From NCBI GenBank assembly GCA_963675515.1, contig OY776328.1:1680001-1712000 (forward strand): 32,000 bases of DNA, read 5' to 3'. Source of the DNA: Coprobacillaceae bacterium (GTDB lineage Bacteria > Bacillota_I > Bacilli_A > Erysipelotrichales > Coprobacillaceae). Positions 1,363-25,488 of the stretch are shown here, piece by piece; position 1 is the stretch's first letter, and each line of letters starts with the position of its first letter. A program made the position numbers and the translations under genes. The notes beneath the pieces were generated by a model. It did not search any database and was not told the origin of the DNA. It saw nothing but the letters and a program-made list of their open reading frames with translations.

Positions 1363-1395
1363 TGTGACTGCTATGTGACATCAAAGGGTTAGTAT
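1363..1395 (+). promoter_or_regulatory. Direct-repeat operator plus -10 (site 1): TGTGACT-gcta-TGTGACA-N9-TAGTAT
   Basis: Heptamers at 1363-1369 and 1374-1380 with 11-bp periodicity. A -10-like TAGTAT at 1390-1395 follows exactly 9 nt after the second repeat. The same architecture occurs at 16431-16463 and 22537-22569. Confidence 0.7.
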
Positions 1396-1455
1396 TTGAA
1401 TGAATAGAATAGTGATATTTGTATGAAAATGGCTTATAGAATAAAGGTGGTATAT

Positions 1456-2058
1456 ATGAAGAAAAAAAGATGGATTATTCTAATAATAGCTTTATTTGTT
1501 GCGGGAGTAGGGCTCACCCTGGCTTTTTTGAATGACTCCGACTATGCTACCAACAAATTTGATGCAGGATATGTGAATGTCGCGGTCGTTGAAAACGGCG
1601 ATGAAGGCACATTTTATGAAGACGGCACCGGAGCTCAGGGTGAAGGTCTGACACTGCCTTTGGTTGAGGGTACAGCGGCCAAAACCGTGCAGGTTGCCAA
1701 CAAGGACACATACGACGACGGATCACCGCTCAACACGGTCGACACTTATGTGAGAGTGAAACTAGTTCCGGTATTGAAAAACGACCTCGATGAGATTGTT
1801 CCAACCGATATCAATGGGGCCATCGTTTATGAAAACCTGGATCTTACCAACTGGCAAAAGATTGGTGACTATTATTATTACAAAACAGTACTCAACGCCG
1901 GCGAACTGACAACACCGTTGTTTACCGGAGTGACTTACACCAACAGCCTTGGAGCAAACGAACATCTGGAAATGAACGTCATGGTTGAAGGCATCGCCGC
2001 CAACCAGACAGATGGAACTCAAAGCTCGCCTCAGGCGGTTTGGGGGGTCAGCTTATAA
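1456..2058 (+). CDS. Secreted TasA/camelysin-like protein with SipW-cognate signal peptide (200 aa)
   Basis: ORF track 1423..2058. Start moved to ATG 1456 (AAGGTGG upstream). N-terminus MKKKRWIILIIALFVAGVGLTLAFLNDSDYATNKFDAG resembles the TasA signal/cleavage region (...GGGTWAAFNDIKSKDATFASG). The body is beta-rich, and the C-terminal part (...EMNVMVEGIAANQ...) fits the family pattern. Confidence 0.75.
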   Translation: MKKKRWIILIIALFVAGVGLTLAFLNDSDYATNKFDAGYVNVAVVENGDEGTFYEDGTGAQGEGLTLPLVEGTAAKTVQVANKDTYDDGSPLNTVDTYVRVKLVPVLKNDLDEIVPTDINGAIVYENLDLTNWQKIGDYYYYKTVLNAGELTTPLFTGVTYTNSLGANEHLEMNVMVEGIAANQTDGTQSSPQAVWGVSL

Positions 2059-2100
2059 TGATCAATCAACTTATATTGCAAAAGAGGTAAGGTGATAATA

Positions 2101-2802
2101 ATGAATAAAAGACACATGATATTTACAGGAATGGTTTTCTCGCTGATCTTGCTTACAGTCAGCTCGTCAACGGCTCTGCTTGCTGATTCTTCGGGACCGG
2201 CCCAAAACATATTCACCTCGACTAGAAAAGTGGACATCCTGTTGCGTGAACCGGGATGGGATGGATACAGCTTTGATGATGATGGTTGGGAACACGGCTT
2301 GGGAACCAAAGACGACTCAACAAGTCTGGATCTGGGTTTCAACAAGGCGACAACTTACATGCCGGGTGACACAATCGTCAAGGATCCAAAGATCCAACTC
2401 GATCAGAGCAGTGAAGACTGTTATGTGGCAATGAAAGTCTCATTCCTGCTTAAGGATGCGACCGGTACATACATAAATGTAGATAAATCGGAACTTACAA
2501 GCACCCTGATTGATGATCTGGTGATCAGCTCCAACTGGCATCAGATTCCCGACAGTGAAACCCCGCCTGAAAACAAGTATGAGATCTATATTTTTGATGG
2601 CGCTGATGACATTGCGGACCTTCTTTCCACCGATGGCACATCGGGTACGGACGCACTGTTTAGCGAAATCAAGGTAAAGTTCAATATATATGAAGAAAAT
2701 CTCAAAGATTTTGAAATCAATGTGAATGCATATGCGATTCAGGGGACAAACCTGGATATCGGCGATGTTGATTCCACAATGCTTGAATTCATCGAAGATT
2801 AG
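2101..2802 (+). CDS. Secreted TasA-like paralogue, REPxWDGY subfamily (233 aa)
   Basis: ORF track 2092..2802. ATG 2101 follows AAGAGGTAAGGTG. N-terminus MNKRHMIFTGMVFSLILLTVSSSTALLADSSGPAQNIFTS is a SipW-type signal. Clear paralogue of 16595..17278: NIFTSTRKVDILLREPGWDGYSF vs NVFTSSRGIDIELREPAWDGYDF, YMPGDTIVKDPKI vs YLPGDTVPKDPTI, DCYVAMKV vs NTYVAMKL. Confidence 0.75.
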   Translation: MNKRHMIFTGMVFSLILLTVSSSTALLADSSGPAQNIFTSTRKVDILLREPGWDGYSFDDDGWEHGLGTKDDSTSLDLGFNKATTYMPGDTIVKDPKIQLDQSSEDCYVAMKVSFLLKDATGTYINVDKSELTSTLIDDLVISSNWHQIPDSETPPENKYEIYIFDGADDIADLLSTDGTSGTDALFSEIKVKFNIYEENLKDFEINVNAYAIQGTNLDIGDVDSTMLEFIED

Positions 2803-2836: not shown

Positions 2837-5416
2837 ATGAAAATTAAAAACATCATAAAAATGGGTCTCGTGTTGTTTCTTACATTGGGCATCATATCCC
2901 TGCCAAATAACGTTGATGCCCTTACACAAGAAGAGCTGGATACAATTCACATGGATAAGACAGCTACATACAATGGGGATGGCACTTATACCATTAACCT
3001 GGAAACCTATGTCACTGGTGATATAACGGTCACATCTGAAGATGTGCCGGTTGACTTTATTCTGGTGTTGGACCAATCAGGGTCTATGGATTCGTATTTT
3101 GCCTCAGGCAAAACCCGTATGGAAGCTTTGAAGGATGCGGCACATGATTTCGTCGATTCGATCGATGCTTTGGATCGAACGACAGGTGATACAGTTTCCA
3201 TTGTGGGATTCGCAACTGATCCGGACTCCGTGTATGCAACCCCCGGAGGTGGAAGTTACCAAGTTACAGAAGCCTTTGATGGAAATACAGGGCCCAGCCC
3301 ATCAACATATCAGGATACTCCTGGTTGGCCTTACAATACCGTTATGGGTTGGAGCTATACAAATTTGGTCAGTAGGGTAGTCAAAGGAGTCGAAACCAAT
3401 AATTCGGATATCCATGACGCCATTGATTCACTTAAACCAGAAGGAGCTACTTCAGCTGATACTGGTATGGAAATTGCTAGACAGATATATAATGCAACTG
3501 CTTCAAATGGACACTTGAAGGTGATTTTATTCTTCACCGATGGTGTACCAACTACTGCAAGTTCTTTTAGTCCTACTGTTGCTAATGCTGCAATTACAGT
3601 TGCAAAGGAACTGAAAGATAATGGTGTAAAAATATTTACAGTCAAAACATCTAATGTTAATGACAATGATACAATCAATTACATGAAGGCTATGTCTTCA
3701 AATTATCCTTATGCGACCAGCTATACATCATTGGGAACTCAGGAAAGCAATGATTTTTATTATAATGTTGCTGATACTCTTGATATGCAAAATGTTTTTG
3801 AAACTGTTCAAAATTACGGAATTGTACAAAACTCGATTCTTTCGACTGATACGGAACTTGTCGATTACTGTTCGGACGTATTGACTGTTCCGGCCTTGGC
3901 AGATGTCCATGTGTATACCTATGCATATACCGGCAGCGGCACTTTCTCTTCCACAGGAGTGGAACTGACCAAAGGCGTCGATGTAACTGCAACAATCGAT
4001 TCGGTTGCAAAAACGATAACGGTCACTGGATTCGATTATGCGGCAAACTCCTGCATAGATGGCGATGGTACTATCCCGACTCAGGGTAACAAACTAGTTG
4101 TTTCATTCACTACGACTGATATACCTGGTTTTATCGGCGGAAACAACGTTGAAACCAACACTCCCGATTCGGCCTTGTATTATGAGGATGAGGAAATCAA
4201 ACCATTCCCCGAACCGACTGTCAATGTTCCTTTGGACTATGAATTCACAGCGAATGATCAGGCGATCTACATCACAAACAATCTTGAAGACGTCACGGCC
4301 TTCTTCGATGATGTATCAACATCAGGTATCCAATATCAGATTGACGGGGTCACCTATGACCTAGGAGAACATCGCAACGATTATGCGGACGTCACTTATC
4401 AGATATATGATGGAACCACCTTGATTGGTGAATATACAATACCGGCCGGTGGCACAACTGGAAGTTTCACATGGTATCCCGACGCGCTTGACACGTCTGG
4501 TTTGACAGGAACCCATGAGTATACAATCAAAGCTGTTGTGGAAACGCAAACGGCACTTCCAACCAGCACAGGCACTCCTGTCACAGCGCCGCTTGTAATT
4601 GAGGACACCGCAAAAGTGTTTGTATTCGTACCTCAGGTGACTACAAACGATGAGGTCATCTTCAAAGGTGAATCATTCACAGTGGATAACATAAATGAAA
4701 CAGTAAATTGGGTTTGCAATGATCCGGCTTATGTGCCAGGAGTTGACCCGGTTGTCCAGGGCACTGCTCCTACGCTGAGCTACAGTCTCGATGGCGGCAC
4801 CTCAAGTGTCATAACCACTCCAACAACCAAAGATACAAACGTGATCACATATAACGTGAGTGTATATGCGAATGGTAATGATGTGACTGCCAATCTTGCA
4901 ACCGGTTCGGATGTCCAGTTCAACGTATACATCGTTGAAGGAGAATTCCAGATAACCCAGATTATCGATGTCGAATACTCACAGATTGACATCTCGGCAC
5001 TACAGGGATTCGGCTATGAAATCCAGAAACTTGACGGAGGAGGCAATGTGGTTGAAACTTACAATGTCGCCCTTTATCCTCGCGAAGGATCAAGCGACTC
5101 GGATATAATTTCAGGCTTATCAATTGGAACGTATAGGGTTGTCAGTGATGACGCCTGGCTGGTAAGATACACCAATGCGCTTCAAAATCCGGACTCGGAT
5201 CCGATTTCACCTGATTCGATTATCGTTACATTAAGCAGAGATGATCTAAATTTTGTTGACATCCGCCAGGATGATATTGTCAATCTGGCAGCTATTGGCA
5301 TTACAATTACCAACACTGACGATGATGTGACTTTTGTAGCTACGAAGGTTCCTTCATACTGGCTGTCTGATTCAGGATATTCAAGAAATATCATAAATAA
5401 TCCTGTGTCTGAATAA
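2837..5416 (+). CDS. Large secreted von Willebrand factor A (vWA) domain protein, 859 aa, adhesin-like
   Basis: RBS AAAGGAGA precedes the ATG. Signal peptide MKIKNIIKMGLVLFLTLGIISLPNNVDA. MIDAS-type motif VDFILVLDQSGSM (DxSxS), with later ...FFTDG... typical of vWA. About 500 aa of T/V/D/Y-rich, beta-type C-terminal sequence. No LPXTG and no C-terminal TM segment. Confidence 0.8.
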   Translation: MKIKNIIKMGLVLFLTLGIISLPNNVDALTQEELDTIHMDKTATYNGDGTYTINLETYVTGDITVTSEDVPVDFILVLDQSGSMDSYFASGKTRMEALKDAAHDFVDSIDALDRTTGDTVSIVGFATDPDSVYATPGGGSYQVTEAFDGNTGPSPSTYQDTPGWPYNTVMGWSYTNLVSRVVKGVETNNSDIHDAIDSLKPEGATSADTGMEIARQIYNATASNGHLKVILFFTDGVPTTASSFSPTVANAAITVAKELKDNGVKIFTVKTSNVNDNDTINYMKAMSSNYPYATSYTSLGTQESNDFYYNVADTLDMQNVFETVQNYGIVQNSILSTDTELVDYCSDVLTVPALADVHVYTYAYTGSGTFSSTGVELTKGVDVTATIDSVAKTITVTGFDYAANSCIDGDGTIPTQGNKLVVSFTTTDIPGFIGGNNVETNTPDSALYYEDEEIKPFPEPTVNVPLDYEFTANDQAIYITNNLEDVTAFFDDVSTSGIQYQIDGVTYDLGEHRNDYADVTYQIYDGTTLIGEYTIPAGGTTGSFTWYPDALDTSGLTGTHEYTIKAVVETQTALPTSTGTPVTAPLVIEDTAKVFVFVPQVTTNDEVIFKGESFTVDNINETVNWVCNDPAYVPGVDPVVQGTAPTLSYSLDGGTSSVITTPTTKDTNVITYNVSVYANGNDVTANLATGSDVQFNVYIVEGEFQITQIIDVEYSQIDISALQGFGYEIQKLDGGGNVVETYNVALYPREGSSDSDIISGLSIGTYRVVSDDAWLVRYTNALQNPDSDPISPDSIIVTLSRDDLNFVDIRQDDIVNLAAIGITITNTDDDVTFVATKVPSYWLSDSGYSRNIINNPVSE

Positions 5417-5433
5417 TGTAATTAACGAATATG

Positions 5434-5468: not shown

Positions 5469-5512
5469 GCCATTTCTACAGTTACCTAGTATGCGACTTT
5501 GGCAGTTTTCTC

Positions 5513-5541: not shown

Positions 5542-5545
5542 ATCT

Positions 5546-5572
5546 TTAGCAAATCACCATTAAGAGTGCTAA
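5546..5572 (+). promoter_or_regulatory. CIRCE-like inverted repeat (HrcA operator type)
   Basis: TTAGCAAAT-CACCATTAA-GAGTGCTAA against consensus TTAGCACTC-N9-GAGTGCTAA. The right arm is perfect, the left arm 6/9, and the spacing is exactly 9 nt. It lies between the -10 and the RBS of htpG. An extra AGTGCTAAG copy sits at 5518-5526. Confidence 0.6.
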
Positions 5573-5584
5573 GGAGGAAATTAC

Positions 5585-7483: not shown

Positions 7484-7493
7484 GGGGAAAACT

Positions 7494-15027: not shown

Positions 15028-15202
15028 CATTGTATATAAGTGGTACTTATTTTATTATGTTGAATCTAGTGGGTTGATTTTTACCACCTTTAGTAGTAAC
15101 ATAATAGTATATATAGGACAATGATGTTGCTAATAGTCACTAATGATTAAAGACTATTAAAGTACATATTTTACACACTTATTATATTTGGGGAGTGATT
15201 TT

Positions 15203-16402
15203 ATGGAATATTCTTGTGTTTTACATGTCCAAGCCTTTGGTGAATTTCAAATCAGTAATGAGACAGGTCAGCTGAATCTGAGCATGCTTAAATCCAAACG
15301 ACTATCAAAACTGCTGTTGTATTTTGTGACCCATCACAGCACCATCATCCCTTCTTCGGATCTGTGCGATTACCTATGGGAAGAGAACGAGAGCTCCAAC
15401 CCGATCGGGGCGCTTAAAAACCTCGTCTACCGGTTGCGGACGGTAATGAAGCGGGTATGGCCCGATCATGATCTTATAATGACGGGATCGGGGACTTATT
15501 TCTGGAACTCGAATGTAAAACTAATTGTCGATTTCGAAGAATTCTACGAATTGGTCAGTTCGGTAAGTGATGAAATGGACGAAGAGTCGAAGATAAGTCG
15601 TTACAAAAGAGCTACGGAAATATATCAGGACCGGCTGTTTGCCCATTTTGATTATGATTCCTTGATAATGCAGAATTCGATGTATTATCACAATGTTTTT
15701 TTGAAAATGACCAAAGATTTCCTGAAGGTGCTTTACAACCAGAAACTTTATGATGAGCTTTATTTTTATTCCAACAATGCATTGACTCTTGACAATACAG
15801 AAGAGGATTTTTACCGTTATGAAATAATGGCACTGGGCCAAAATAATGAGTTTGAACTGGCCCGGGTCAAATATGAGACAGCCAAATATGTTCTTAATCA
15901 TGAGCTTGGGGTTTTGCCAAGCGATAAGCTGATCAAGACTTATGAACAGATTTTAAGCCAGTTTCTTCAGGCCAATGAATCAATCGACAAGGTCCAACAG
16001 GACATTGTTCCGCTGCAATCAAATAACGTTCTTGTATGTGATTACGGAGCATTTAAAAACCTATGCAATCTTGAGCTTCGGCTGGCGCAAAGACACTCGT
16101 TCGATTCGACTTTGCTTCTGGTCTCGGTTAATGTGATGAAACCGTTTGACGGCCATTCCAAGATCTTCCGGGATACCTTGAATAGGGGAATGGACCGTGT
16201 TGAAGATGTTTTGATTGATGCACTGCGCAACAGCGATTCGGTTTCCAAGGTCTCGCCCAATCAGTACAGCTGTCTTCTTAGCATGTGCAATATTGACGAT
16301 GCAACCTTGGTTATCGAGAGAATCGAGAAATATTTTTACCGCGGTCTGAAAAAAAACGACATCTACATAACTTGCAACAGTCAAAAACTTGGGTCTAACT
16401 GA
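15203..16402 (+). CDS. SARP-like transcriptional activator (OmpR-type wHTH + BTAD) fused to a degenerate GGDEF-like domain
   Basis: ORF track 15188..16402 starts at a TTG. ATG 15203 follows GGGGAG. The N-terminus LHVQAFGEFQI...SKLLLYFVTHH...SSDLCDYLWEE...NPIGALKNLVYRLRTVM fits the SARP/wHTH pattern. The middle helical BTAD-like region includes ...ALGQNNEFELARVKYETAKYVLNHELGVLPSDKLIKTYEQIL. The C-terminal ~105 aa follow the GGDEF-domain pattern (STLLLVSVNVMKPFDGHSK...ALRNSDSVSKVSPNQYSCLL...ATLVIERIEKYF), with GGDEF replaced by SPNQY and RxxD (RNSD) retained 5 residues upstream. Confidence 0.75.
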   Translation: MEYSCVLHVQAFGEFQISNETGQLNLSMLKSKRLSKLLLYFVTHHSTIIPSSDLCDYLWEENESSNPIGALKNLVYRLRTVMKRVWPDHDLIMTGSGTYFWNSNVKLIVDFEEFYELVSSVSDEMDEESKISRYKRATEIYQDRLFAHFDYDSLIMQNSMYYHNVFLKMTKDFLKVLYNQKLYDELYFYSNNALTLDNTEEDFYRYEIMALGQNNEFELARVKYETAKYVLNHELGVLPSDKLIKTYEQILSQFLQANESIDKVQQDIVPLQSNNVLVCDYGAFKNLCNLELRLAQRHSFDSTLLLVSVNVMKPFDGHSKIFRDTLNRGMDRVEDVLIDALRNSDSVSKVSPNQYSCLLSMCNIDDATLVIERIEKYFYRGLKKNDIYITCNSQKLGSN

Positions 16403-16416
16403 GCCAAGTTTTTTTG
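16383..16416 (+). terminator. Rho-independent terminator of the regulator gene
   Basis: AAAAACTTGG (16383-16392) / CCAAGTTTTT (16404-16413) plus further T residues. The stop codon lies in the loop. Confidence 0.75.
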
Positions 16417-16430
16417 TGGTTTTTCAATCT

Positions 16431-16463
16431 TGTGACTTCAGTGTGACAGGTAAATAATATTAT
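16431..16463 (+). promoter_or_regulatory. Direct-repeat operator plus -10 (site 2): TGTGACT-tcag-TGTGACA-N9-TATTAT
   Basis: Heptamers at 16431-16437 and 16442-16448, with TATTAT at 16458-16463. Spacings are identical to sites 1 and 3. Confidence 0.7.
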
Positions 16464-16594
16464 GTTATTGAAATTAGAGGTAAAGACAATAACTCAAGGC
16501 GAACACGAAAACCCGAAAATGTCTTACCATAATATCCGTATTATTTGTTACATAATCATGTTAGTTTACTATTAAGGAAAGGAAGAATGACAAC

Positions 16595-17278
16595 ATGAAG
16601 AAATTCACAAAGTATTTAATGATTTTTGCATTGGTTTTTGGTCTTACCCTGTCATTGACTATGGCTCTTTTGACTGATACCACATCATCGGCAACAAACG
16701 TTTTTACATCATCACGGGGAATCGACATTGAGTTAAGAGAACCGGCATGGGATGGATACGATTTTTCAGAAGCTTGGCCGGGCGGTACATCACCTAAATC
16801 AGCTGATGTAACCCTTGGTTACAACATAGCCAATGAGTACTTGCCAGGAGATACTGTGCCTAAAGATCCGACCATCAAAGCCATGACCGGAAGCGACAAC
16901 ACCTACGTGGCAATGAAATTGACCTACAAGGTTAACGATGTTGTAGTTCCTTATGCAACATTTGCGACATATCTTCGAGATGGCAGCATCGCATTTGACA
17001 CTGGAGCGGCAGTAGACGAATGGTCTAATGAATCGACAGTGCCTGCAGACAATGATTTCTTTGTTTTCAATTCTTATCTTGTAGCCGATTCAGCTCAAGC
17101 AACGACATCACCATTGTTCACCCAAGTGTTGATTTCCTTCGGATTGGTTCCTGATGGTTCAGGTAACTTACCAAAATTGGAAATAGATGCAACTGCTTAT
17201 GGTGTTCAAATATCATTGCCAGCTGGAACTGACAAGGCAACAGCTTTGAAAACCCTTGCCGGATACCCAGCGCCTTGA
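16595..17278 (+). CDS. Secreted TasA-like paralogue, REPxWDGY subfamily (227 aa)
   Basis: RBS GGAAAGGAAG. SipW-type signal MKKFTKYLMIFALVFGLTLSLTMALLTDTTSSATNVFTS. Paralogue of 2101..2802 (see that entry). Confidence 0.8.
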   Translation: MKKFTKYLMIFALVFGLTLSLTMALLTDTTSSATNVFTSSRGIDIELREPAWDGYDFSEAWPGGTSPKSADVTLGYNIANEYLPGDTVPKDPTIKAMTGSDNTYVAMKLTYKVNDVVVPYATFATYLRDGSIAFDTGAAVDEWSNESTVPADNDFFVFNSYLVADSAQATTSPLFTQVLISFGLVPDGSGNLPKLEIDATAYGVQISLPAGTDKATALKTLAGYPAP

Positions 17279-17333
17279 TATTAATTGATTAATTCAACGA
17301 TCACTAAACATAATTAAAAAAGGAGAAAATATT

Positions 17334-17984
17334 ATGAAATTGAACAAGAAAATTGCTGCAATTGTCACTACAGCAGCGATTGCACTCAGTGCCACTGTCG
17401 GATTCACGCTGGCATACTTCACTGACTACACCAAAACTGAAACCAACACAATCACAATGGGACATGTTGACATCGATTTAAGAGAAACTTCAGTTGCAGG
17501 ACCTGGCGTTAAGGCTGGTACGGCTACTGATGACGGTTACGATTACAATGATGTAATGCCTGGCGATGTCTATTCCAAACAGCCTGTAATTACAGTAATG
17601 GCTGGATCTGAAGATTGTTATGTCCGCGCACTGGTTACTCTTAAGACAATAGATACAGGCGGCGATGGGGTCATCTCTGAAGCTACTCTGTTGAGCTATT
17701 TGAATATTGAGACAACCGATTGGTTTATCGGTAGTTTGACAAGTAATCCTGATGGTTCAGAAAGTGCATATGTGTATTATAAGAACTCTTTGGCAGCTGG
17801 CGCAAACGTAACTGTATTCTCTACAGTATCATTCCCAAGCAGCTTGACCAACAGCAGCACAAACGATGATTACATAATAACTGTAAAGGCTGAAGCGATT
17901 CAAGCAGCTAATGTGACACCTACAACCAACCCAGGTGGCATGATCACTGGTTGGCCTGCAGCGGCAATCGAACAATATTCTTAA
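17334..17984 (+). CDS. Secreted TasA/camelysin-like protein with SipW-cognate signal peptide (216 aa)
   Basis: RBS AAAGGAGA. N-terminus ...ALSATVGFTLAYFTDYTKTETNTITMGHVDIDL is a close match to the SipW-cognate signal and mature N-terminus pattern. Also MPGDVYSKQPVITV...SEDCYVRALVTL and ...ITVKAEAIQAANV. Confidence 0.85.
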   Translation: MKLNKKIAAIVTTAAIALSATVGFTLAYFTDYTKTETNTITMGHVDIDLRETSVAGPGVKAGTATDDGYDYNDVMPGDVYSKQPVITVMAGSEDCYVRALVTLKTIDTGGDGVISEATLLSYLNIETTDWFIGSLTSNPDGSESAYVYYKNSLAAGANVTVFSTVSFPSSLTNSSTNDDYIITVKAEAIQAANVTPTTNPGGMITGWPAAAIEQYS

Positions 17985-17996
17985 TATGACAGCATG

Positions 17997-18042
17997 AAGG
18001 CATGTTCGTTAACGGATAGTGTTAACACAACATGCCTTTTTT
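17997..18042. terminator. Terminator hairpin between the convergent operons
   Basis: Perfect 10-bp stem AAGGCATGTT (17997-18006) / AACATGCCTT (18029-18038), with a T-run to 18042 on the + strand. The pilT stop codon abuts it at 18043. Confidence 0.75.
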
Positions 18043-19095
18043 CTATCCCAATTTCTGGGTGATATATTGGTTGTTCTTGCAGTACTTGATCACTGTTTCC
18101 CTGGATATGATACGGTCCTGGTAAAGTTGCAGCAGACTGTTGTCAAGGGTCACCATGTTTTGCCGGTCGCTTTCAATGATCGAGTCGATCTGGTGGATCT
18201 TTTTTTCTCTTATAAGGTTGCGGATGGCCGGATTGACAATCATGATTTCAAACACCGGAATGAGCTTGCCGGAAATATCGGGAACGAGATGCTGCGACAC
18301 GACCGCATTGAGGGTCAGTGAGAGCATCATCGCTATCTGCGGCTGCTCATTGGCTGGAAAGGCATCGATGATCCGGTTGATTGTATTGCTTGCGCCGATT
18401 GTATGGAGTGTGGAAAACACCAGGTGGCCGGTCTCGCTTGCGGTTATCGCAGTCTCGATAGTTTCATGGTCGCGCATCTCCCCAAGCAGGATGACATCGG
18501 GACACTGGCGCAGGCTGGCCCTCAGGGCGGTCAGATAACAGTTGGTGTCATTGCCGATCTCCCGCTGGGTGATTATCGATTTGTTGTGGACATGAAGATA
18601 CTCGATAGGGTCTTCAAGAGTGATGACATGACGGGCATGATTGTGGTTGATGTAGTCGATGATGCATGCCAGGGTTGTCGATTTGCCGCTTCCTGAAGGT
18701 CCGGTGAAAAGGATCAGCCCGTTGGTCTGGTCGCCTAGAGCAATCAGCTGTTCGGGAATGTTCAATTCCTGGAAATCCGGAAGCTTGAAGGCGATGATTC
18801 GGATCACGCAAGCCAGTGAACCCCGCTGTTTGAACATGCTCACCCGGAAGCGGGAAAGGTGGGCTATCGAGAAGGCGAAATCGTCATCGCCGTCATTGAA
18901 GAGGATATCGACATCGCGCTTGGCGATTTCGTAAATCTGGCTGATAAGCTGTTTGGTGTCTTCGGTGGTGAGTACATCATTGTTCAAGGGGCACAGTTGA
19001 TTGTCTTTCTTGAACTTGACTGGGATGTTGGCTTCGATAAAGATATCCGAAGCCTGCATGGTTATTGCCCGGTGCAGAATTGAAGTAATTTCCAT
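18043..19095 (-). CDS. pilT: PilT-family type IV filament ATPase (retraction-ATPase type), 350 aa
   Basis: ORF track 18043..19128. Start moved to ATG 19095 (AGGAGA 5 nt upstream). Walker A GPSGSGKSTT, ITLEDPIEY, LRQCPDVILLGEMRD, ETGHLVFSTLHT, and the PilT/PilU-specific motif AIRNLIRE (PAIRNLIREKKIHQI). There is no N-terminal extension of PilB/GspE type. Confidence 0.85.
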   Translation of the reverse strand: MEITSILHRAITMQASDIFIEANIPVKFKKDNQLCPLNNDVLTTEDTKQLISQIYEIAKRDVDILFNDGDDDFAFSIAHLSRFRVSMFKQRGSLACVIRIIAFKLPDFQELNIPEQLIALGDQTNGLILFTGPSGSGKSTTLACIIDYINHNHARHVITLEDPIEYLHVHNKSIITQREIGNDTNCYLTALRASLRQCPDVILLGEMRDHETIETAITASETGHLVFSTLHTIGASNTINRIIDAFPANEQPQIAMMLSLTLNAVVSQHLVPDISGKLIPVFEIMIVNPAIRNLIREKKIHQIDSIIESDRQNMVTLDNSLLQLYQDRIISRETVIKYCKNNQYITQKLG

Positions 19096-19096
19096 A

Positions 19097-19483
19097 TCAT
19101 TCTCCTGTGTAGACTGGAGCCAAGTCATCTAGCTGGTAATCCGAATTGTTTTGGACCTGCAAGGAGATGATTTGCTTGGCATTATAATCGTAAACCAATG
19201 TGACTGTCTGGCCATAGTCAATGACCTCCTGGAAAGTTATCACATTTGCTTCCATTTGAAAATCGTATTGTTCCTGAAGGGTTGCCAACGGAATTTCCCG
19301 GCTGTCGTTGATGAAACGGTTGATTATCGACCTGGCCTCAAGGTAGGTGAGGTTGTGGGCGAGGTTCTGGTCAATCAGGGTTTGGCTGGCCTTGGTCTGG
19401 ATGTATGAGTTGAATGTCAATGTGATCAATACCAGGATGATGATGATATTGAAAAGGCTTGTCAGCCCGATTCTAATCTTCAT
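19097..19483 (-). CDS. Pseudopilin-like small protein (128 aa, ComGG-sized)
   Basis: RBS GAGGTGG. N-terminus MKIRIG/LTSLFNIIIILVLITL is a short basic leader plus a hydrophobic helix. Gly at the -1-like position is retained, but no Glu occurs at +5. Confidence 0.6.
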   Translation of the reverse strand: MKIRIGLTSLFNIIIILVLITLTFNSYIQTKASQTLIDQNLAHNLTYLEARSIINRFINDSREIPLATLQEQYDFQMEANVITFQEVIDYGQTVTLVYDYNAKQIISLQVQNNSDYQLDDLAPVYTGE

Positions 19484-19841
19484 AAGCCACCTCGTAGTCA
19501 GTCGCGATGATCAGGTTGTCATATTTGTCGTAAACATCAAGATGGAATATCGGGAAATTGTTTTCAACTTTTACGCAATAATAATAATCGTCCGTGGTGT
19601 TTATATTGTTGCTGTCAAAAAGGATTAGCGAATCACTGGTTTGGTAGTAACCTTCAAGATCGCCTTGATGTTCTTGAAGGATTGCGACGATACTGTTGAG
19701 CTGGATGATTGCTTTGGCCTTGATCGTGTTGTGGTAATTGATGAGAGTTGTTTTCATCATGATCTGGATGACCAGCGCCAGGGCGATTGCGAAAACCAGA
19801 AGGTTGACACATAGCTCGAGCATGCTTATCTTATCTTTCAC
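19473..19841 (-). CDS. Pseudopilin-like small protein (122 aa, ComGE/GF-sized)
   Basis: GTG start overlapping the upstream stop (GTGA), with GGAGGG 6 nt upstream. N-terminus (M)KDK/ISMLELCVNLLVFAIALALV has a Glu at the +5-like position, but Lys replaces Gly at -1. Confidence 0.6.
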   Translation of the reverse strand: MKDKISMLELCVNLLVFAIALALVIQIMMKTTLINYHNTIKAKAIIQLNSIVAILQEHQGDLEGYYQTSDSLILFDSNNINTTDDYYYCVKVENNFPIFHLDVYDKYDNLIIATDYEVAYED

Positions 19842-20254
19842 GGCTTGCCCTCCAGGCTCAAGTAGTAGTTTTCGTTGATTACAAGCAGGCCATCAATGAG
19901 ATCCAGGTCCAGTTTTTCCATGGAACATATCTGGTCCCCATATTCCATATCGAATTCCCGGCCGGCCGGCAGATAAAGCTCGCATAGGTAACCATCGTTG
20001 TTGTACAGGTAGGTCACATATGAAGAACCATCTTCGAGTACAAGAATGTCCGGGGTATCATCTTTTTTTATTTCAACCGATTTGGCCCGCTTGATCTTTT
20101 CGTTTATGAAGCTGATCACAAACTGCTCATCTACAAGGGCATCTTGGGCTATGGCTGTCTTGTTTGTGATGTTTAGCACCAGGATGCAGATGGCGCCAAG
20201 GGTGAATATAAAGATGCCGGTAATGAGGTATGAAAACAAGTCGCTTTTATTCAT
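19838..20254 (-). CDS. Pseudopilin-like small protein (138 aa, ComGD-sized)
   Basis: Overlaps the upstream gene by 8 nt. N-terminus MNKSDLFSYLITGIFIFTLGAICILVL is a single N-terminal hydrophobic helix with no G/FTLxE motif. Confidence 0.55.
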   Translation of the reverse strand: MNKSDLFSYLITGIFIFTLGAICILVLNITNKTAIAQDALVDEQFVISFINEKIKRAKSVEIKKDDTPDILVLEDGSSYVTYLYNNDGYLCELYLPAGREFDMEYGDQICSMEKLDLDLIDGLLVINENYYLSLEGKP

Positions 20255-20531
20255 AGGCGAATACCGTCAAGTCAGGTATGATGTTTTCTCCAATCGGGAT
20301 CAAAAAAACCTGATATCTTGTCTTATCGAAGCTTAGGCCGTAATTTTCCTCAAGATATCCCAGTGATTCGGGATAACGCCCCTCATTGATGTAACAAAGC
20401 AGTATCTTGTCATTGATCGACTGCTCGAGTGCATGCAATGCGTTTTTTTGGCTGGTCTTATTGAACTGGTTGACAAATATGATTGCCAGGGCCAATGCAA
20501 TAATGACCAGCGACAATTTTACCATCTTCAT
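20247..20531 (-). CDS. ComGC/GspG-like major pseudopilin candidate with degenerate prepilin motif (94 aa)
   Basis: ATGA overlap with the upstream stop. MKMVK/LSLVIIALALAIIFVNQF aligns to ComGC MNEKG/FTLVEMLIVLFIISILL, but G-1 is K and E+5 is I. The globular part ...HALEQSINDKILLCYINEGRYPESLGYLEENYGL matches the ComGC/GspG pattern (...G.YP..L..L...GY). Confidence 0.65.
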   Translation of the reverse strand: MKMVKLSLVIIALALAIIFVNQFNKTSQKNALHALEQSINDKILLCYINEGRYPESLGYLEENYGLSFDKTRYQVFLIPIGENIIPDLTVFAYE

Positions 20532-21460
20532 AAGTCTGAAAGAATCGCGAACAGCGGCAATATCAATGAGAGCAGGATGATTGCCACAATGACGACAAAA
20601 CCGGTGCCAAAGTATAGTTCGAACTTGGCCAATGATTCATCCATCCTTGTATTGGCCTTCTGGCGATACTCGTCGAAAAGCATTTCGAGAACCTTTTCAT
20701 GGGTTCCGTTCTGGATGCTCATTTCCAACAAGGACAGCTCAAGAGGCTCGAGCCGGGAAGAAAACGCCTCGATCACGCCCGATTTGGACATGTTGGCTAT
20801 TCCAGCTGCCTGATCGAAAGAAACTCCGGCCTTTACCAGGGTGGAAACGGCAAAAAGCTCATTGGATGCCCGATTGAGAGCCTTTGCCTTTTTGAATATC
20901 CCAACCTTGTCTTGCCGGATCATTCCCAGCAACAAAAGCATACCAGATAGCACAATGATGATGAAGTAAGTGAGGTAATCATTGATGAAGTATCCCAGCT
21001 GAAGGCTTATCCTGGCAACACCGGTCAGCTGTGCTCCCATGCTTGCATAAAGGTCGTTGAACACCGGGAGAATCCTGGTAACCAGGATGGTCATTATGGC
21101 TATCATGACCAGGCTAATGCCAATGGGGAAATTCAACATCCTTTTCAATTTCCTGTTGCTTTGATCAAGTTGCTTGTAATAGTTTGTCAGGTGAAGAAAT
21201 ACTTCGTCAAGATTTCCCGAATGCAGGCCGGCTTTGACCAGGTCAAGATAAAGCTGGTCAAACAATCCGGTGCTTTCCAGGGCGGAAATGATGTCATTTT
21301 GTTCGAGCTGGGCGATTACCTGGTTCAACAGATACTTCATCCGCATTTGTGTGGTGTTTGTTTCAAGCAATCTAAGTCCCGCCAAGAAACTTTGGCCGCT
21401 GGTGGAAATCAGATACATTTGCTTTGAAAAATTTATGATTAGATCGTAATCGTTTCTCAT
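20528..21460 (-). CDS. PilC/ComGB/GspF-family platform membrane protein (short, about 310 aa)
   Basis: ORF track 20528..21472. I prefer ATG 21460 (GGAGG 5 nt upstream); ATG 21472 overlaps the upstream stop as TAATG and remains possible. Two GspF-like repeats (...LVKAGLHSGNLDEVF... and ...LVKAGVSFDQAAGI...) and three hydrophobic segments. Confidence 0.75.
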   Translation of the reverse strand: MRNDYDLIINFSKQMYLISTSGQSFLAGLRLLETNTTQMRMKYLLNQVIAQLEQNDIISALESTGLFDQLYLDLVKAGLHSGNLDEVFLHLTNYYKQLDQSNRKLKRMLNFPIGISLVMIAIMTILVTRILPVFNDLYASMGAQLTGVARISLQLGYFINDYLTYFIIIVLSGMLLLLGMIRQDKVGIFKKAKALNRASNELFAVSTLVKAGVSFDQAAGIANMSKSGVIEAFSSRLEPLELSLLEMSIQNGTHEKVLEMLFDEYRQKANTRMDESLAKFELYFGTGFVVIVAIILLSLILPLFAILSDL

Positions 21461-21471
21461 TGCCGCCTCCA

Positions 21472-22392
21472 TTAAAAGATGTATTTCAGCTCATAATTTT
21501 CGCTGTCGGTTGTGAATTCCTGGATTTTCTTGTTGCCTGGGTCTTGCGAGATGAAGGTGGGATCCATGATTTGCCATTTCTCGTTTTCAAAATAGATGAA
21601 ATTGTCGATCCAACCGGTCTGATCCGTATAGACACTGACCCAGGCATGATATGTGTCTTTGACATATCCGAATTCCAGCCGGGTCGGGATAGCCTGGGTG
21701 CGCAGCATCGCGACAAGCAATGACGCGTAATCGAAGCATATCCCTTTTTTGGATTGGTAGATAGAGTTTAGATCCGGAATATAATCGTAGGCGACACTTT
21801 TAGCCTTTTCATAGTCATAATCGTAGTTGGTTATAATGTAATCGAAGATTAGCTGGATCTTTTCCAGGGTTGACGACGCATTTGTGACCAGCTCGCTGGC
21901 AACATATACAACCTGGGTGTCCTTGTCGAAATTGACATACTGGTTGTTGTACAAGAAGGCATTGAATCCGTTTTCCTGCTCAACTTTGAAGCTGGTCTTG
22001 AATATCTTGCCATAGCGGTTGCCTTCGATATTTTCATAAACCGTGATCCCATAAGTTCCTGATGTCTCGACCAGATTGAAAAAGTCGATTTTTCCGGTCA
22101 GGTTGTATGTGTAGATGGCCCCTGAAGGCAGTGTCAGCTGGAGTTTGGGCCTGTCGTTGGTTCCGGTGTATTTCACTCCAAAATACCCTTTGACGACATT
22201 GGTCAGGTCTATTTCCACCGCATCGTTGCCTTGGGTTTTTCCTTCATTGAAGCTGGCAAGATAGAAAACCGGTTCGCTTTTCAAGGTGGCTTGATTGGAG
22301 GAAGAAGCGAGATTCAAAGGGGATGGTGTCTGGGCGTTGGTACCACATCCGCTCAAAAGCATGGCTGCGATGATCAGGAATTTGAATTTCAT
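21472..22392 (-). CDS. Lipoprotein with C-terminal transglutaminase-like (papain-fold Cys-His-Asp) domain
   Basis: ORF track 21472..22458. Start moved to ATG 22392 (AGAGGTG upstream). Lipobox MKFKFLIIAAMLLSGC. Transglutaminase core KKGICFDYASLLVAMLRTQAIPTRLEFGY...YHAWVSVY...GW...IMDPTF (Cys, His, Asp). Confidence 0.8.
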   Translation of the reverse strand: MKFKFLIIAAMLLSGCGTNAQTPSPLNLASSSNQATLKSEPVFYLASFNEGKTQGNDAVEIDLTNVVKGYFGVKYTGTNDRPKLQLTLPSGAIYTYNLTGKIDFFNLVETSGTYGITVYENIEGNRYGKIFKTSFKVEQENGFNAFLYNNQYVNFDKDTQVVYVASELVTNASSTLEKIQLIFDYIITNYDYDYEKAKSVAYDYIPDLNSIYQSKKGICFDYASLLVAMLRTQAIPTRLEFGYVKDTYHAWVSVYTDQTGWIDNFIYFENEKWQIMDPTFISQDPGNKKIQEFTTDSENYELKYIF

Positions 22393-22536
22393 CTGGATAT
22401 CACCTCTTATCGTTGAGCAAAGATCCATAAACCGGATTTTCAATTGCGGTTTGCTCACATATGGTAATTATACAAGATTTCCCCGTTTTTATAAAGGGTA
22501 ACAATTCATTTCCTTTAAAACAACAATTGATAGAGA

Positions 22537-22569
22537 TGTGACTGACATGTGACTGGTTAACGTTAAAAT
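22537..22569 (+). promoter_or_regulatory. Direct-repeat operator plus -10 (site 3): TGTGACT-gaca-TGTGACT-N9-TAAAAT
   Basis: Heptamers at 22537-22543 and 22548-22554, with TAAAAT at 22564-22569. It lies in the divergent intergenic region shared with the minus-strand operon. Confidence 0.7.
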
Positions 22570-22593
22570 ACAAGTGATATAGAGGTGAAAAAT

Positions 22594-23238
22594 ATGAACA
22601 AGAAGATAATAATAGGAATGATATTCATACTAGGAGTAGTTGGTTTTAGCGTTCGTGGCACCTACAGTGTCATTCAAAGCAGTTTTGAAACCCAGAAAGC
22701 TATCTACACCCCATATCTTGGCATAGATTTTGTCAATGGTGACGGTAGCACGATGTCTGACAATTTTTTGGAGAGTGAGGTGTATGGAATGCCGGGTGAT
22801 GTCATCGATGGCGGACTGGCGATCAAAAACACCGAAAATACGACAGCCTACGTCCGGGTGACGATTTACCGCTACTGGGCCGATGAAGACGGGACCAAAA
22901 ACACAACCGACCGGGATGATCCAAATTACCTCGATCCCGCCCAAATCCAGTTCACGATAGCGAACGGCTGGCTTGTTTTTGACGGTGATGAGTATTCCGA
23001 AGTCACATATGCGTATTACACCAGACCGCTGGATCCAGGAGAGTATGCTACGGTCATCGATTCGTACACTTATCTGGATGTAACCCAAAACAACAATCTT
23101 TACGCTGACAAGATCGTCCATCTCGAGTTCTTCGGTTATGGCGTTCAGACCTTTGATGCCAAGAACTCTTTCAAGGCTGAATGGGGCGTTGATGTTGAAT
23201 TTGACGCTGATGAGAACATTGTTTCAATCGGATTGTAG
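22594..23238 (+). CDS. Secreted TasA/camelysin-like protein (214 aa)
   Basis: ORF track 22585..23238 (GTG). ATG 22594 follows AGAGGTG. N-terminus MNKKIIIGMIFILGVVGFSVRGTYSVIQSSFETQKAIY is a divergent SipW-type signal. MPGDVIDGGLAIKNTENTTAYVRVTIY and ...HLEFFGYGVQTFDAKNSFKAEWGV parallel the other paralogues. Confidence 0.7.
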   Translation: MNKKIIIGMIFILGVVGFSVRGTYSVIQSSFETQKAIYTPYLGIDFVNGDGSTMSDNFLESEVYGMPGDVIDGGLAIKNTENTTAYVRVTIYRYWADEDGTKNTTDRDDPNYLDPAQIQFTIANGWLVFDGDEYSEVTYAYYTRPLDPGEYATVIDSYTYLDVTQNNNLYADKIVHLEFFGYGVQTFDAKNSFKAEWGVDVEFDADENIVSIGL

Positions 23239-23253
23239 AAAAGAGGGATGAAA

Positions 23254-23880
23254 ATGAAAAAACTGATAATTGGTTTGGCCATCACTCTTGTAGCTTTTCT
23301 GTCAATGAACAATGTGGCTGCAGCGGATGTGATCACCTATCAAGGTGATGCCAACAGATTCATAATGCTTGACGGTAATGCCCCGGATTTCGAAAACATG
23401 CTTCCAGGTGAATCAAGAACAGTCACTTTCAATCTGGTAAATGGCAGTGGCGGACAGATGCGTTTCTATATGTCAAGCGAGATTCTCGACAATATCGCAA
23501 ACAAAGGTGACGGGGATGCGGTGTACACATTCACCATCGCCGATGGGACAACACCGTTTTTTGAAACCGAAGTCGGAAATGATGAAGTGACCATCGGGTT
23601 GCAGTTTCTGACCAATGACAACAACATCCTGTTGGGGACTTTGAATGCCGGCGCATCAAAGACAATCAATGTCACCCTTTCACTGGACGGGGATTCGGCC
23701 AACAACGAATATCAAGGGCAAACCGGGGTAGTCAATTTCATATTCTCAGTCGAGCAGCCTTTGCCAAAGATTGTCAAAACCGGCGACGAATCGGTTTCAC
23801 CGCTTGTCTATGGTGGCTTGATCGTGGCAGCGGGATTAGTGCTGATACTGTACAAAAGGGGTGGTAAACATGAAAAGTAG
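23254..23880 (+). CDS. Secreted beta-sandwich-type protein with C-terminal sortase-like sorting signal (IVKTG + TM + basic tail)
   Basis: ORF track 23248..23880. ATG 23254 has better RBS spacing (AGAGGG). Classical signal ...SMNNVAAADV. C-terminus PLPKIVKTGDESVSPLVYGGLIVAAGLVLILYKRGGKHEK. Confidence 0.7.
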   Translation: MKKLIIGLAITLVAFLSMNNVAAADVITYQGDANRFIMLDGNAPDFENMLPGESRTVTFNLVNGSGGQMRFYMSSEILDNIANKGDGDAVYTFTIADGTTPFFETEVGNDEVTIGLQFLTNDNNILLGTLNAGASKTINVTLSLDGDSANNEYQGQTGVVNFIFSVEQPLPKIVKTGDESVSPLVYGGLIVAAGLVLILYKRGGKHEK

Positions 23881-24703
23881 ATCATTGAAAGTGATGATTG
23901 GCATCGTCGTGATGATGTTCTTTACCCTGTTGCCAGCCAATGCATTGCGTAGTTACGATATAACGTTCAAGACCGGTAGTCAGGGAAGCATCGCTTCCCA
24001 GGACCGGGTTGTTCTCAATCTGGAATATGGGGCAACTTTGGATCCGGATCTGATCCAGGCGGCCATCGATGTGAACGAAGGTTATTTCTTTACCGGGTTT
24101 TACCTTGATGTGCCTGAAACAGTGACCAGGGAAGACACCTTTGTCGCACAGTACCGCAAGATTATCGATTCGGTAACATACCAGATAAACTATCTCGATG
24201 AAAATGACAAACCTCTGGCAACGTCGGTTGTCAAGACAACCAATCTTAATGCTCCAGCAAGTGTCCTGGCCATGGAAATCCCGGATTACGCGGTCGATGC
24301 GGCAGTCAAAACCGAAACAATCACCCAGGATGGTATTCAAATCAGCTTCCATTACACATCGACCCTTGCCAGCTCGCCAGGTGGTGGAAGTTCAAGTTCC
24401 GGTAGTATTTCAACTTCAGTCGTTGTTGTGCCAGGTACCGGAAATCAAATAACTGTTGTTACCCCCGATGACGGAACAACAACCGATGACGACGGCACTA
24501 CAACCGATGATGGAACAACAACCGATGACGATGATGGAACTACAACCGATGACGATGGAACAATAATCGATGACGATGATGTGCCATTGACACCGGGCTT
24601 CTGGAATACAACCAGCGTCACAGCCGCTGCGGTAATAGCACTGTTGGCATCTGGAATCGTTCTCTGGCTGCTTGTTTTCAAGAAAAAACGTGGTAGCCGT
24701 TGA
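23870..24703 (+). CDS. Membrane-anchored adhesin-like protein (Listeria-Bacteroides-repeat-like + MucBP-like modules, acidic D/G/T repeat, C-terminal TM anchor)
   Basis: ORF track 23861..24703 (GTG). ATG 23870 follows AAGGGGTGG. YDITFKTGSQGSI...EGYFFTGFY resembles the Flg_new/List-Bact repeat. VTYQINYLDENDKPL...IQISFHYT resembles MucBP. The C-terminus is ...TSVTAAAVIALLASGIVLWLLVFKKKRGSR. Confidence 0.65.
   Translation: MKSRSLKVMIGIVVMMFFTLLPANALRSYDITFKTGSQGSIASQDRVVLNLEYGATLDPDLIQAAIDVNEGYFFTGFYLDVPETVTREDTFVAQYRKIIDSVTYQINYLDENDKPLATSVVKTTNLNAPASVLAMEIPDYAVDAAVKTETITQDGIQISFHYTSTLASSPGGGSSSSGSISTSVVVVPGTGNQITVVTPDDGTTTDDDGTTTDDGTTTDDDDGTTTDDDGTIIDDDDVPLTPGFWNTTSVTAAAVIALLASGIVLWLLVFKKKRGSR
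24467..24580 (+). repeat. In-frame imperfect tandem repeat, unit 18-24 nt (GAT GAC (GAY)n GGN ACW ACA ACC), encoding (D)nGTTT
   Basis: Five to six consecutive units read directly: gatgacggaacaacaacc / gatgacgacggcactacaacc / gatgatggaacaacaacc / gatgacgatgatggaactacaacc / gatgacgatggaacaataatc / gatgacgatgat. Confidence 0.85.
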
Positions 24704-25200
24704 TGGTGAAGCTCATCCATTTTTTAACCAATACAGTTATCGTCATTGTAGTCGCCTTTATGGCATTGTTGTATGTTCCAAGAATCATGGGAATCAGCCC
24801 TTATGTGGTGTTGTCGGGTTCGATGGAGCCTACTTACCATGTGGGCAGTCTGATTTTCGTAAACAAGAATTTTGATTCGATTGAAGTTGGTGATCCAATC
24901 ACCTTCCAAATATCCAGTTCAACTCTGGTAACCCACCGGGTTATTGAAGTGGACCAGGAGGCGATGCTCTACACGACCAAAGGCGATGCCAACAATACTG
25001 CCGATGGTTCCAAGGTGGCATATGACAATATTGTCGGGGTGCCAATGTTCACAATCCCATACCTGGGATATGTGGCGGTGTTCGCAATCAGTTTCAATGG
25101 CAAGATCATCCTGGGATCCGTGGTGGCTTTGATGATACTGCTTAGCTACCTGGCAGATATGTACAGGAAAGACCAAGAAAAAATGCCTACTCAACCCTGA
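24703..25200 (+). CDS. sipW: Signal peptidase I, ER/archaeal type (SipW-like, Ser-His)
   Basis: ORF track 24700..25200 (TTG). ATG 24703 overlaps the upstream TGA (TGATG). SPase boxes VLSGSMEPTY, LVTHRVIEV (His in place of the bacterial Lys box) and TKGDANNTADG. Contains an N-terminal and a C-terminal TM segment. Confidence 0.85.
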   Translation: MVKLIHFLTNTVIVIVVAFMALLYVPRIMGISPYVVLSGSMEPTYHVGSLIFVNKNFDSIEVGDPITFQISSSTLVTHRVIEVDQEAMLYTTKGDANNTADGSKVAYDNIVGVPMFTIPYLGYVAVFAISFNGKIILGSVVALMILLSYLADMYRKDQEKMPTQP

Positions 25201-25274: not shown

Positions 25275-25280
25275 GTGGTT

Positions 25281-25488
25281 AATCTAGGGAACGGGATTAA
25301 GCAGGAAGAAGATTGCAGAGACAATATGGCTGGTGAAAATATTGATTTGACGTCTGCGGGACACCCGGGAAGAGTTACTTTGAATCGAGTAGAAGTAAAC
25401 GTTGGTCGCGTTAAGACAGAGTGCGTGTGAATCACACGAATTAAGGTGGTACCGCGTTTTTGACGTCCTTATTTTAAGGGCGTTTTTT
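25281..25488 (+). ncRNA. T-box riboswitch leader of hisS-aspS
   Basis: AGAGA bulge motif (25316-25320) and distal-loop-like GGCTGGTGAAA. Conserved T-box sequence AATTAAGGTGGTACCGCG (25439-25456). Terminator ACGTCCTT-loop-AAGGGCGT plus TTTTTT (25463-25488). Confidence 0.85.

Follow-up and report, generated by a model that had tools for sequence, protein, structure and literature searches.

A locus combining SipW/TasA-type fibre genes with a type IV filament-like gene cassette in a Coprobacillaceae bacterium

Why should the genes of a pilus-like motor lie inside a locus for SipW-processed surface fibres? This question is raised by a stretch of 32,000 nucleotides from an uncultured gut bacterium of the Coprobacillaceae (GenBank assembly GCA_963675515.1, contig OY776328.1, positions 1,680,001 to 1,712,000; the whole stretch is called the window in the following). 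A preliminary description, made from the sequence alone, had named four components, namely a regulator with a dead GGDEF domain, SipW/TasA operons, a minus-strand operon encoding a PilT-PilC-pseudopilin motor and a shared operator motif, and had proposed that they form a hybrid machine. These components are real, and the 14 genes, the translational coupling of the minus-strand genes, the degenerate GGDEF domain and the shared operator were each found again in our re-analysis. The best reading of the sequence comparisons is that the block was put together from two systems, which one Erysipelotrichaceae lineage has joined as an island between relA and hisS. The first is a Bsa/TasA-type matrix-fibre system distributed over three operons and the second an autonomous seven-gene type IV filament-like cassette, which is widespread in Clostridia and travels with a regulator combining SARP and degenerate GGDEF domains. 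Within the type IV filament superfamily the cassette apparently represents a variant that has not been described. A pilus-like motor physically inside a fibre locus, apparently under one regulator, offers a natural test case for the passage of large folded proteins and of fibres with covalent stabilisation through the thick Gram-positive wall, and for the recent idea of pilus-assisted matrix export.

Gene content of the block

The block is bounded by relA (12770-14998) and hisS/aspS (from 25509), and all of its 14 genes are present in a nested order: the regulator, two TasA-like genes, the genes from pilT to a transglutaminase-like (Tgl-like) gene on the opposite strand, one TasA-like gene, two genes for anchored proteins and sipW. 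The G+C content is 0.38-0.42 at 15-17 kb compared to about 0.50 in the flanks. Between pfkA and htpG, at a distance of 10 kb on the upstream side of the block, a further fibre operon is located (1423-5416). The minus-strand operon, referred to as the cassette, consists of seven open reading frames (ORFs) with overlaps of 1-32 nt:

18043..19128 (-): PilT-family ATPase with Walker A and B motifs, His box and AIRNLIRE (PilT/PilU TIGR01420, 409.7 vs 319.1)
19097..19483 (-): p128, pilin-like; Glu is absent and an invariant Gly precedes the hydrophobic helix, as in the GspK/PilX minor pilins (N-terminal pattern)
19473..19841 (-): p122, pilin-like; an invariant Glu corresponds to Glu5 of pilins (alignment and N-terminal pattern across loci)
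19838..20254 (-): DUF4860 protein, predicted to have a long N-terminal helix and a beta-sheet, the pilin 'lollipop' shape (PF16152, 51.4 bits)
20247..20531 (-): p94, shortest of the four small proteins and the most highly conserved; invariant motif CYxxEGxYPxSLxYL (family alignment)
20528..21472 (-): PilC/GspF-like platform of 314 aa, without the N-terminal ~60 residues of canonical PilC/GspF (T2SSF, PF00482, 73.6 bits in two stretches)
21472..22392 (-): extracytoplasmic transglutaminase-core lipoprotein (Tgl-like) with a Cys-His-Asp triad (Transglut_core, PF01841, 77.7 vs 23)

The PilT-family protein is the sole ATPase of the cassette and reaches 312.6 bits to Aquifex PilT (2ewv) compared to about 87 bits to PilB/GspE. 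The platform has the two T2SSF stretches expected of a polytopic GspF/PilC membrane protein and is below every equivalog cutoff (GspF 83 vs 424, PilC 72 vs 700, ComGB 53 vs 240). In the Tgl-like protein a lipobox (LLSGC) is present if translation starts at M23, as it does in the orthologues. His249 and Asp277 of its triad are invariant and the Cys is found in 35 of 36 scorable family members, the lone exception being a homologue whose catalytic Cys is changed to Tyr (GVYLD; L013, 4053-4856). A function of this enzyme as replacement of a prepilin peptidase was considered and rejected on topology, as it would be located outside the membrane and the pilin leaders in the cytoplasm.

Calling the four small proteins pilin-like is reasonable but not proven for all four, and the canonical GFTLxE prepilin signal is present in none of them in the window. 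The best solved-structure matches of p122 are the Thermus thermophilus pilins PilA5 and PilA4 (marginal, E=0.011-0.09), and across many loci its N-terminus follows the pattern (K/R)x(G/S)(N/S)xLL(V/I)E. An AlphaFold2 (AF2) model of the DUF4860 protein (pLDDT 83.7) shows a 54-residue helix followed by a beta-sheet. The protein p94, a candidate for the major subunit, had no match in a profile search of the PDB, and no member of the p94 or p128 families matched Pfam. NCBI labels p94, p122 and p128 as 'hypothetical', and annotations of the small cassette proteins do not go beyond 'hypothetical', DUF4860 or generic type II secretion system (T2SS)/PilT. One metagenomic protein in the DUF4860 slot (among L014-L093) begins with MKRQGYTLIEMVLV, a canonical prepilin signal, which suggests from its sequence that some cassettes keep a PilD-type substrate.

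Neither PilB, ComGA nor a prepilin peptidase is encoded in the window, and PilB, PilD and PilMNO, by which a type IVa pilus is recognised, were found neither there nor in about 90 cassette loci. The lack of a prepilin peptidase that had been stated before therefore holds for the locus. Beyond it the statement goes too far, as a peptidase encoded elsewhere is likely, given the class-III-like N-termini retained by two of the small proteins.

The fibre system comprises five TasA-like paralogues, a von Willebrand A (vWA) protein, two anchored proteins and SipW, which are distributed over three operons:

1423..2058 (+): TasA/BsaA-like, 211 aa, SipW-cognate signal peptide (TIGR04088, 19.3 vs 19; iterated family hidden Markov model (HMM), E=7e-11)
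2092..2802 (+): TasA/BsaA-like, 236 aa, paralogue of the 227-aa protein (blastp 8e-34; HMM 321 bits)
2837..5416 (+): secreted vWA protein, 859 aa, 93 kDa (VWA_2 57.5 bits, VWA 47.5 bits)
16595..17278 (+): TasA/BsaA-like, 227 aa, paralogue of the 216-aa protein (blastp 7e-13)
17334..17984 (+): TasA-family, 216 aa, SipW-cognate signal peptide (TIGR04088 cognate_SipW, 26.1 vs 19; camelysin/TasA PF12389, 29.1 vs 22.5)
22585..23238 (+): divergent TasA-like, 217 aa, likely start ATG at 22594 (iterated HMM alone, E=1.6e-5, with five orthologues)
23248..23880 (+): wall-anchored protein, 210 aa, IVKTG sorting signal (TIGR01167, 17.6 vs 15.9; NCBI 'LPXTG cell wall anchor')
23861..24703 (+): surface protein, 280 aa, acidic T/D-rich stalk and C-terminal hydrophobic anchor (MucBP and LPXTG_double hits sub-threshold only)
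24700..25200 (+): SipW-type (archaeal-type) signal peptidase I (TIGR02228, 105.7 vs 51.85)

The SipW-cognate signal (TIGR04088, cutoff 19) was recognised in the 216-aa and 211-aa proteins, and the other three TasA-like proteins were assigned via paralogy or the iterated HMM. The orthologue of the 216-aa protein is named 'TasA family protein' by NCBI. SipW does not reach the Bacillus SipW equivalog (NF046067, 108.9 vs 190). A profile search of the PDB with the TasA-like paralogues gave no match, and an AF2 model from six TasA-like paralogues was poor (pLDDT 58), with the TasA fibre 8aur being only the 11th match (E=0.013) among generic beta-sandwiches. Judged by its genes, the fibre system has the composition of sipW-bsaA-bsaB-bsaC from Clostridium perfringens, with the 859-aa vWA protein as the counterpart of BsaC. 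Between the third fibre operon and recJ/apt/relA a 528-aa transposase-like ORF is located (8201-9787, minus strand), which may be related to the separation of the fibre operons.

Distribution of the cassette

Close relatives of the window's PilC-like protein are rare, with only six among 5.8 billion clusters, and an alignment scan of GTDB with this protein led to one species only, an Erysipelotrichaceae metagenome-assembled genome (MAG). A 65%-identical PilC-like protein (P0003) carries the NCBI label 'Alphaproteobacteria bacterium' MAG, which is probably a binning error because of the distribution of the family. The nested arrangement at the relA-hisS site is also present in four further loci (L001-L004) and in a more distant complete genome (L009), thus in six loci of six. 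The objection that both modules might be adjacent only in this genome, which the preliminary description had raised against itself, therefore did not apply. Compared to the window, L009 shows 41% identity in the PilC-like and 34% identity in the DUF4860 protein and has an extra gene.

Outside of this lineage the identical order of all seven genes was found in four independent Clostridial contexts (L005/6, L007, L011/12 and L013), in which no homologues of SipW, the TasA-like proteins or the anchored proteins were detected. Clustered at 50% identity, the DUF4860 family comprises 165 representatives; a single-sequence word-indexed search had found only its own cluster, with 20 proteins only in the profile search. 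An alignment scan of the JGI metagenomes yielded 536 relatives of p94, the hosts being gut, termite and bioreactor Clostridia, and 80 of these loci were fetched and annotated with home-made HMMs. The cassette order was kept throughout, with one permuted variant in which the ATPase comes first and Tgl last (L051, 992-5594: PilT, PilC-like, p94, DUF4860, p128, Tgl). All seven genes were present in 36 loci, and 30 had a flank of at least 4 kb.

Among 126 non-redundant neighbours within 3 kb the only recurrent Pfam families were BTAD (7), Trans_reg_C (6) and GGDEF (5), and in L005 and L007 the regulator adjoining the cassette is homologous over its full length to that of the window. As BTAD, Trans_reg_C and GGDEF proteins recur as neighbours and SipW and TasA do not, the conserved unit is the cassette together with its SARP-degenerate GGDEF regulator. 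The regulator thus belongs with the cassette and not with TasA, and the link to SipW/TasA is an addition made in one small Erysipelotrichaceae lineage. GGDEF as the third most frequent neighbour family is pointing to a control of the cassette by cyclic di-GMP (c-di-GMP).

Two other observations concern the Clostridial flanks. In L007 the genes directly upstream of the cassette (4243-7580) code for two GGDEF proteins, one of them of the response-regulator-HD-GGDEF type, and for an Hpt protein, and directly upstream of the Tgl gene of an Oscillospiraceae cassette we found small ORFs with a weak sortase match (TSCHP...R; L005, 6763-7500, and L006, 3126-3704), which may represent an unusual sortase, or the remains of one, with a link to the cassette. 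The cassette is common in gut, termite and bioreactor Clostridia without a paper on it having been found: nothing relevant was obtained in the literature on DUF4860, on transglutaminase combined with PilT or on PilT in Erysipelotrichaceae, and no paper on this gene combination was found.

The regulator and its operator

The first gene of the block and the control elements of the window are as follows:

15188..16402 (+): SARP-type regulator with a winged helix-turn-helix (wHTH), BTAD and a degenerate GGDEF domain with RxxD I-site (Pfam, alignment, profile search)
1363..1379 (+): operator, third copy, TGTGACTGCTATGTGAC (exact match, 44 bp upstream of the first gene of the third TasA-like operon)
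16431..16447 (+): operator, copy 1, TGTGACTTCAGTGTGAC (overlaps a -35-like hexamer)
22537..22553 (+): operator, copy 2, TGTGACTGACATGTGAC (divergent region, overlaps the -35 of the plus-strand promoter)
22467..22495 (-): near-consensus promoter-like site of the cassette, TTTATA-17-TATAAT (-10 hexamer conserved in six genomes)
17996..18042 (+): terminator hairpin with U-run between the convergent TasA-like operon and pilT (-21 kcal/mol, z = -4.8)

Translation of the regulator probably starts at M6 (15203). Its BTAD domain was recognised with 41.6 bits (cutoff 22.1) and its OmpR-type wHTH (Trans_reg_C) with 23.7 bits, slightly below the cutoff of 26.2. With its C-terminal 130 residues a profile search matched solved diguanylate cyclases (3ign, E=1.7e-6; 6zxm, E=5.7e-6). 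The GGDEF fold is thus recognised, although the GG(D/E)EF active site required of diguanylate cyclases is missing: the GGEEF pentad has become SPNQY, and the homologues carry SPNQY, SAAQF or SPTIV. The earlier verdict of a dead GGDEF domain was therefore correct. Five residues upstream of the pentad the RxxD I-site (R347, D350) is invariant in six of six aligned homologues. As receptors with a GGDEF fold, a dead active site and an intact RxxD are known, with PelD and PopA as examples, the domain resembles a receptor of c-di-GMP more than an enzyme. With SARP regulators the protein shares the OmpR-type wHTH and the BTAD domain, and its putative targets share the heptamer-type direct repeats with 11-bp spacing beside the -35; at the level of sequence the features of a SARP are thus all found. 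In contrast to both types of proteins, the regulator from the window fuses the two. We know of no described case of a SARP and a degenerate GGDEF domain fused in one protein. As a transcription factor responding to c-di-GMP, such a fusion would be new in type for Bacillota.

Two relatives deviate in this part of the locus. In L003 (8038-9258) the regulator is split into pieces of 278 aa and 106 aa, by a frameshift or by decay of the GGDEF-like end, with the cassette and fibre genes being intact. In L002 (15174-16568) a group II intron reverse transcriptase (RVT_1 and GIIM) lies between the regulator and the first TasA-like gene, with the remaining block unchanged.

The operator has the consensus TGTGAC-N5-TGTGAC and occurs three times in the window compared to 0.23 expected sites; none of 100 shuffles gave three. 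SARPs bind direct repeats on one helix face, and the geometry of the operator, with repeats spaced by 11 bp at the -35, matches this binding mode. All three fibre operons are preceded by a copy, and the copies overlap -35-like hexamers of the plus-strand promoters. The shared motif seen before was hence confirmed and extended by the site at 1363, which lies outside the range described previously. Both sites of the block are kept in L001-L004 and also in L009, there with one mismatch at one site. The divergent control region, given earlier as about 200 bp, measures 192 bp if the Tgl-like protein starts at M23. The distance between the start of the operator and the -10 of the cassette is 70-72 bp in six of six genomes, including L009 with its unrelated intervening sequence. 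This constant spacing hints at one bound regulator serving both divergent promoters, and the cassette and fibre operons are probably co-regulated in the Erysipelotrichaceae lineage.

In one Clostridial cassette without an adjacent regulator an 11-bp-spaced direct repeat CGGAAAWTGTG is located about 20 bp upstream of a TTGACA/TATAAA promoter (L011, 6131-6153), which may be an equivalent operator. A riboswitch was not found in the block, as the sole match of the Rfam scan is an ordinary feature:

25278-25473 (+): T-box leader of hisS (119 bits vs gathering score 93)

A possible joint function, alternatives and known systems

If both systems work together, the regulator would bind the 11-bp-spaced TGTGAC repeats in response to c-di-GMP and thereby switch on the fibre operons, and it might also act on the cassette promoter from the fixed distance of 70-72 bp. 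The cassette would build a short pseudopilus in the envelope, which could help the folded SipW-processed fibres and the 93-kDa vWA protein to cross or to attach to the thick wall, similar to the role reported for type IV pilus genes with BsaC of C. perfringens. The Tgl-like enzyme would work outside the membrane on wall, pilin-like or fibre proteins. Such a functional coupling, with a pseudopilus assisting the export or anchoring of fibres and vWA protein, is plausible but unproven, and we rate it slightly below an even chance. That a type IV filament machine can serve a SipW/TasA-type system has a functional precedent in C. perfringens. There the secretion of BsaC, the vWA protein of the sipW-bsaA-bsaB-bsaC operon, needs pilA3, pilB2, pilC1, pilD and pilMNO, but not pilT, and several pilus genes also affect the release of BsaA polymers (Kivimaki et al., PMC11580942). 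In this single preprint from 2024-25 it was proposed that type IV pilus machines take the part of a type II secretion system in Gram-positive bacteria, with matrix proteins of the Bsa/TasA type as substrates (PMC11580942).

Several points weigh against the coupling. None of the C. perfringens machine parts PilB2, PilC1, PilD and PilMNO is present in the cassette, and pilT is dispensable in C. perfringens. PilT-family ATPases are known as retraction motors and not as assembly motors. No SipW HMM match, signal-peptidase motif or TasA-like match was obtained in any of the 29 non-lineage loci whose flank measures 4 kb or more, which stand for about 15 different neighbourhoods, and therefore the primary function of the cassette cannot be TasA-specific. 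Co-occurrence with SipW/TasA was thus seen at the six lineage loci and at none of these 29, and under the refuting condition that the preliminary description had set itself the modules are independently distributed at depth. Furthermore, all lineage loci are orthologous, so the conserved adjacency could be due to inheritance alone. The window has no copy of the operator directly on the cassette promoter, and upstream of the Clostridial cassettes and regulators nothing convincing was found when looking for TGTGAC-type or other 11-bp-spaced repeats. The pilin-likeness of p94 and p128 is taken from genomic context and N-terminal patterns only, and Foldseek with the DUF4860 model found nothing significant and one sensible match, the Thermus pilin-like TTHA1219.

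The strongest alternative is that the two systems are neighbours without a joint function. The TasA/Bsa operons would have settled by the cassette regulator, or have been acquired together with it in one island, and have captured its operator, with the cassette keeping a TasA-independent Clostridial job. This would agree with the autonomy of the cassette everywhere outside the lineage, with an operator that fronts the three fibre operons and not the start of the cassette, with the cassette owning a near-consensus promoter and with the nested loci being orthologous at one relA-hisS site. However, the nesting outlived a divergence to 34-41% identity in the cassette proteins and was kept despite the intron in L002, the split regulator in L003 and the extra gene in L009. 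The spacing between operator and cassette promoter is fixed, and there is the experimental precedent of type IV pilus help in Bsa secretion (PMC11580942). We regard this alternative as quite possible, though not probable. The hybrid machine proposed initially is supported in part: the conserved nesting, the operator and the spacing speak for it within the lineage, but the autonomous cassette shows that the machine is no obligate SipW/TasA hybrid.

The cassette might also be an accessory set, with PilT, a second platform and minor pilins, for a canonical type IV pilus encoded elsewhere that supplies PilB and PilD. No assembly ATPase or peptidase was found in the cassette at any of about 90 loci, p122 and p128 retain class-III-like N-termini with Gly/Ser-Asn and Glu, and one prepilin peptidase often serves several systems (Denise et al., PMC6668835). 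On the other hand, the cassette encodes a platform of its own and, always arranged alike, all four pilin-like proteins, as complete systems do, and it always includes the Tgl enzyme, which is part of no type IV pilus. We consider this explanation unlikely. An ordinary comG-type competence pseudopilus operon, for which the monoderm host, the short ComGB-like size of the platform and the four small pilin-like genes could be quoted, was rejected as highly improbable on the family scores of ATPase (149.7 vs 300 for ComGA, yet 409.7 vs 319.1 for PilT) and platform (53 vs 240 for ComGB), and it also disagrees with the lack of a GFTLxE ComGC-type signal in any protein, the different gene order with the ATPase last and the Tgl enzyme and SARP regulator, both foreign to comG.

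Returning to the composite of two systems, one can go further and see the cassette as a new type IV filament family. It would be a Gram-positive endopilus with a PilT-type motor alone, pilins bypassing the canonical prepilin signal, an extracellular transglutaminase-fold enzyme as core part and a c-di-GMP-sensing SARP control, having SipW-processed TasA/Bsa fibres and a vWA adhesin as lineage-specific cargo or partner. In this full form the proposal is tentative and we consider it rather unlikely. If true, the known range of type IV filaments would be widened by a machine that runs on PilT only and has a transglutaminase-fold enzyme built in.

With the type IVa pilus, the T2SS and the Com pseudopilus (Denise et al. 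2019, PMC6668835) the cassette shares the PilT-family hexameric ATPase, the GspF/PilC-family platform and a set of four to five small pilin-like proteins with an N-terminal anchor, among them one with a Glu5 equivalent and one with the Gly-minus-1, no-Glu pattern of GspK/PilX. It differs in having PilT as sole ATPase without PilB/GspE/ComGA, PilD and PilMNO/GspLM, in lacking the canonical GFTLxE signal and in its obligatory extracytoplasmic transglutaminase-core enzyme. The generic type IV filament model of Denise et al. requires a recognisable pilin (PMC6668835), and such a search for ATPase, platform and pilin would likely miss the cassette, because its pilin-like proteins are invisible to pilin profiles.

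The tapA-sipW-tasA operon of Bacillus subtilis shares with the fibre system the SipW-type peptidase and TasA-family substrates with cognate signal peptides. It includes no ATPase or platform and is regulated by SinR/SlrR, in contrast to the SARP-degenerate GGDEF regulator of the window, where no TapA homologue is present and five paralogues, LPXTG-type anchors and a vWA protein are found instead.

Shared with the Bsa system of C. perfringens (Obana et al.; PMC11580942) are the SipW peptidase, several TasA-like proteins, the vWA protein and a type IV filament machine implicated in protein export, and the LPXTG-bearing BsaB-like protein of some strains can be likened to the anchored proteins from the window. 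The pilus genes of C. perfringens, however, are unlinked and canonical (PilA3, PilB2, PilC1, PilD, PilMNO), whereas the window has a PilT-only cassette inside the fibre locus, with non-canonical pilins and a Tgl enzyme, and has its fibre genes spread over three operons under a SARP operator. Thus the claim that no such system had been described has to be narrowed, as type IV pilus-dependent secretion of BsaC has been reported (PMC11580942). The locus does differ in its PilT-only motor, the Tgl enzyme and the non-canonical pilins.

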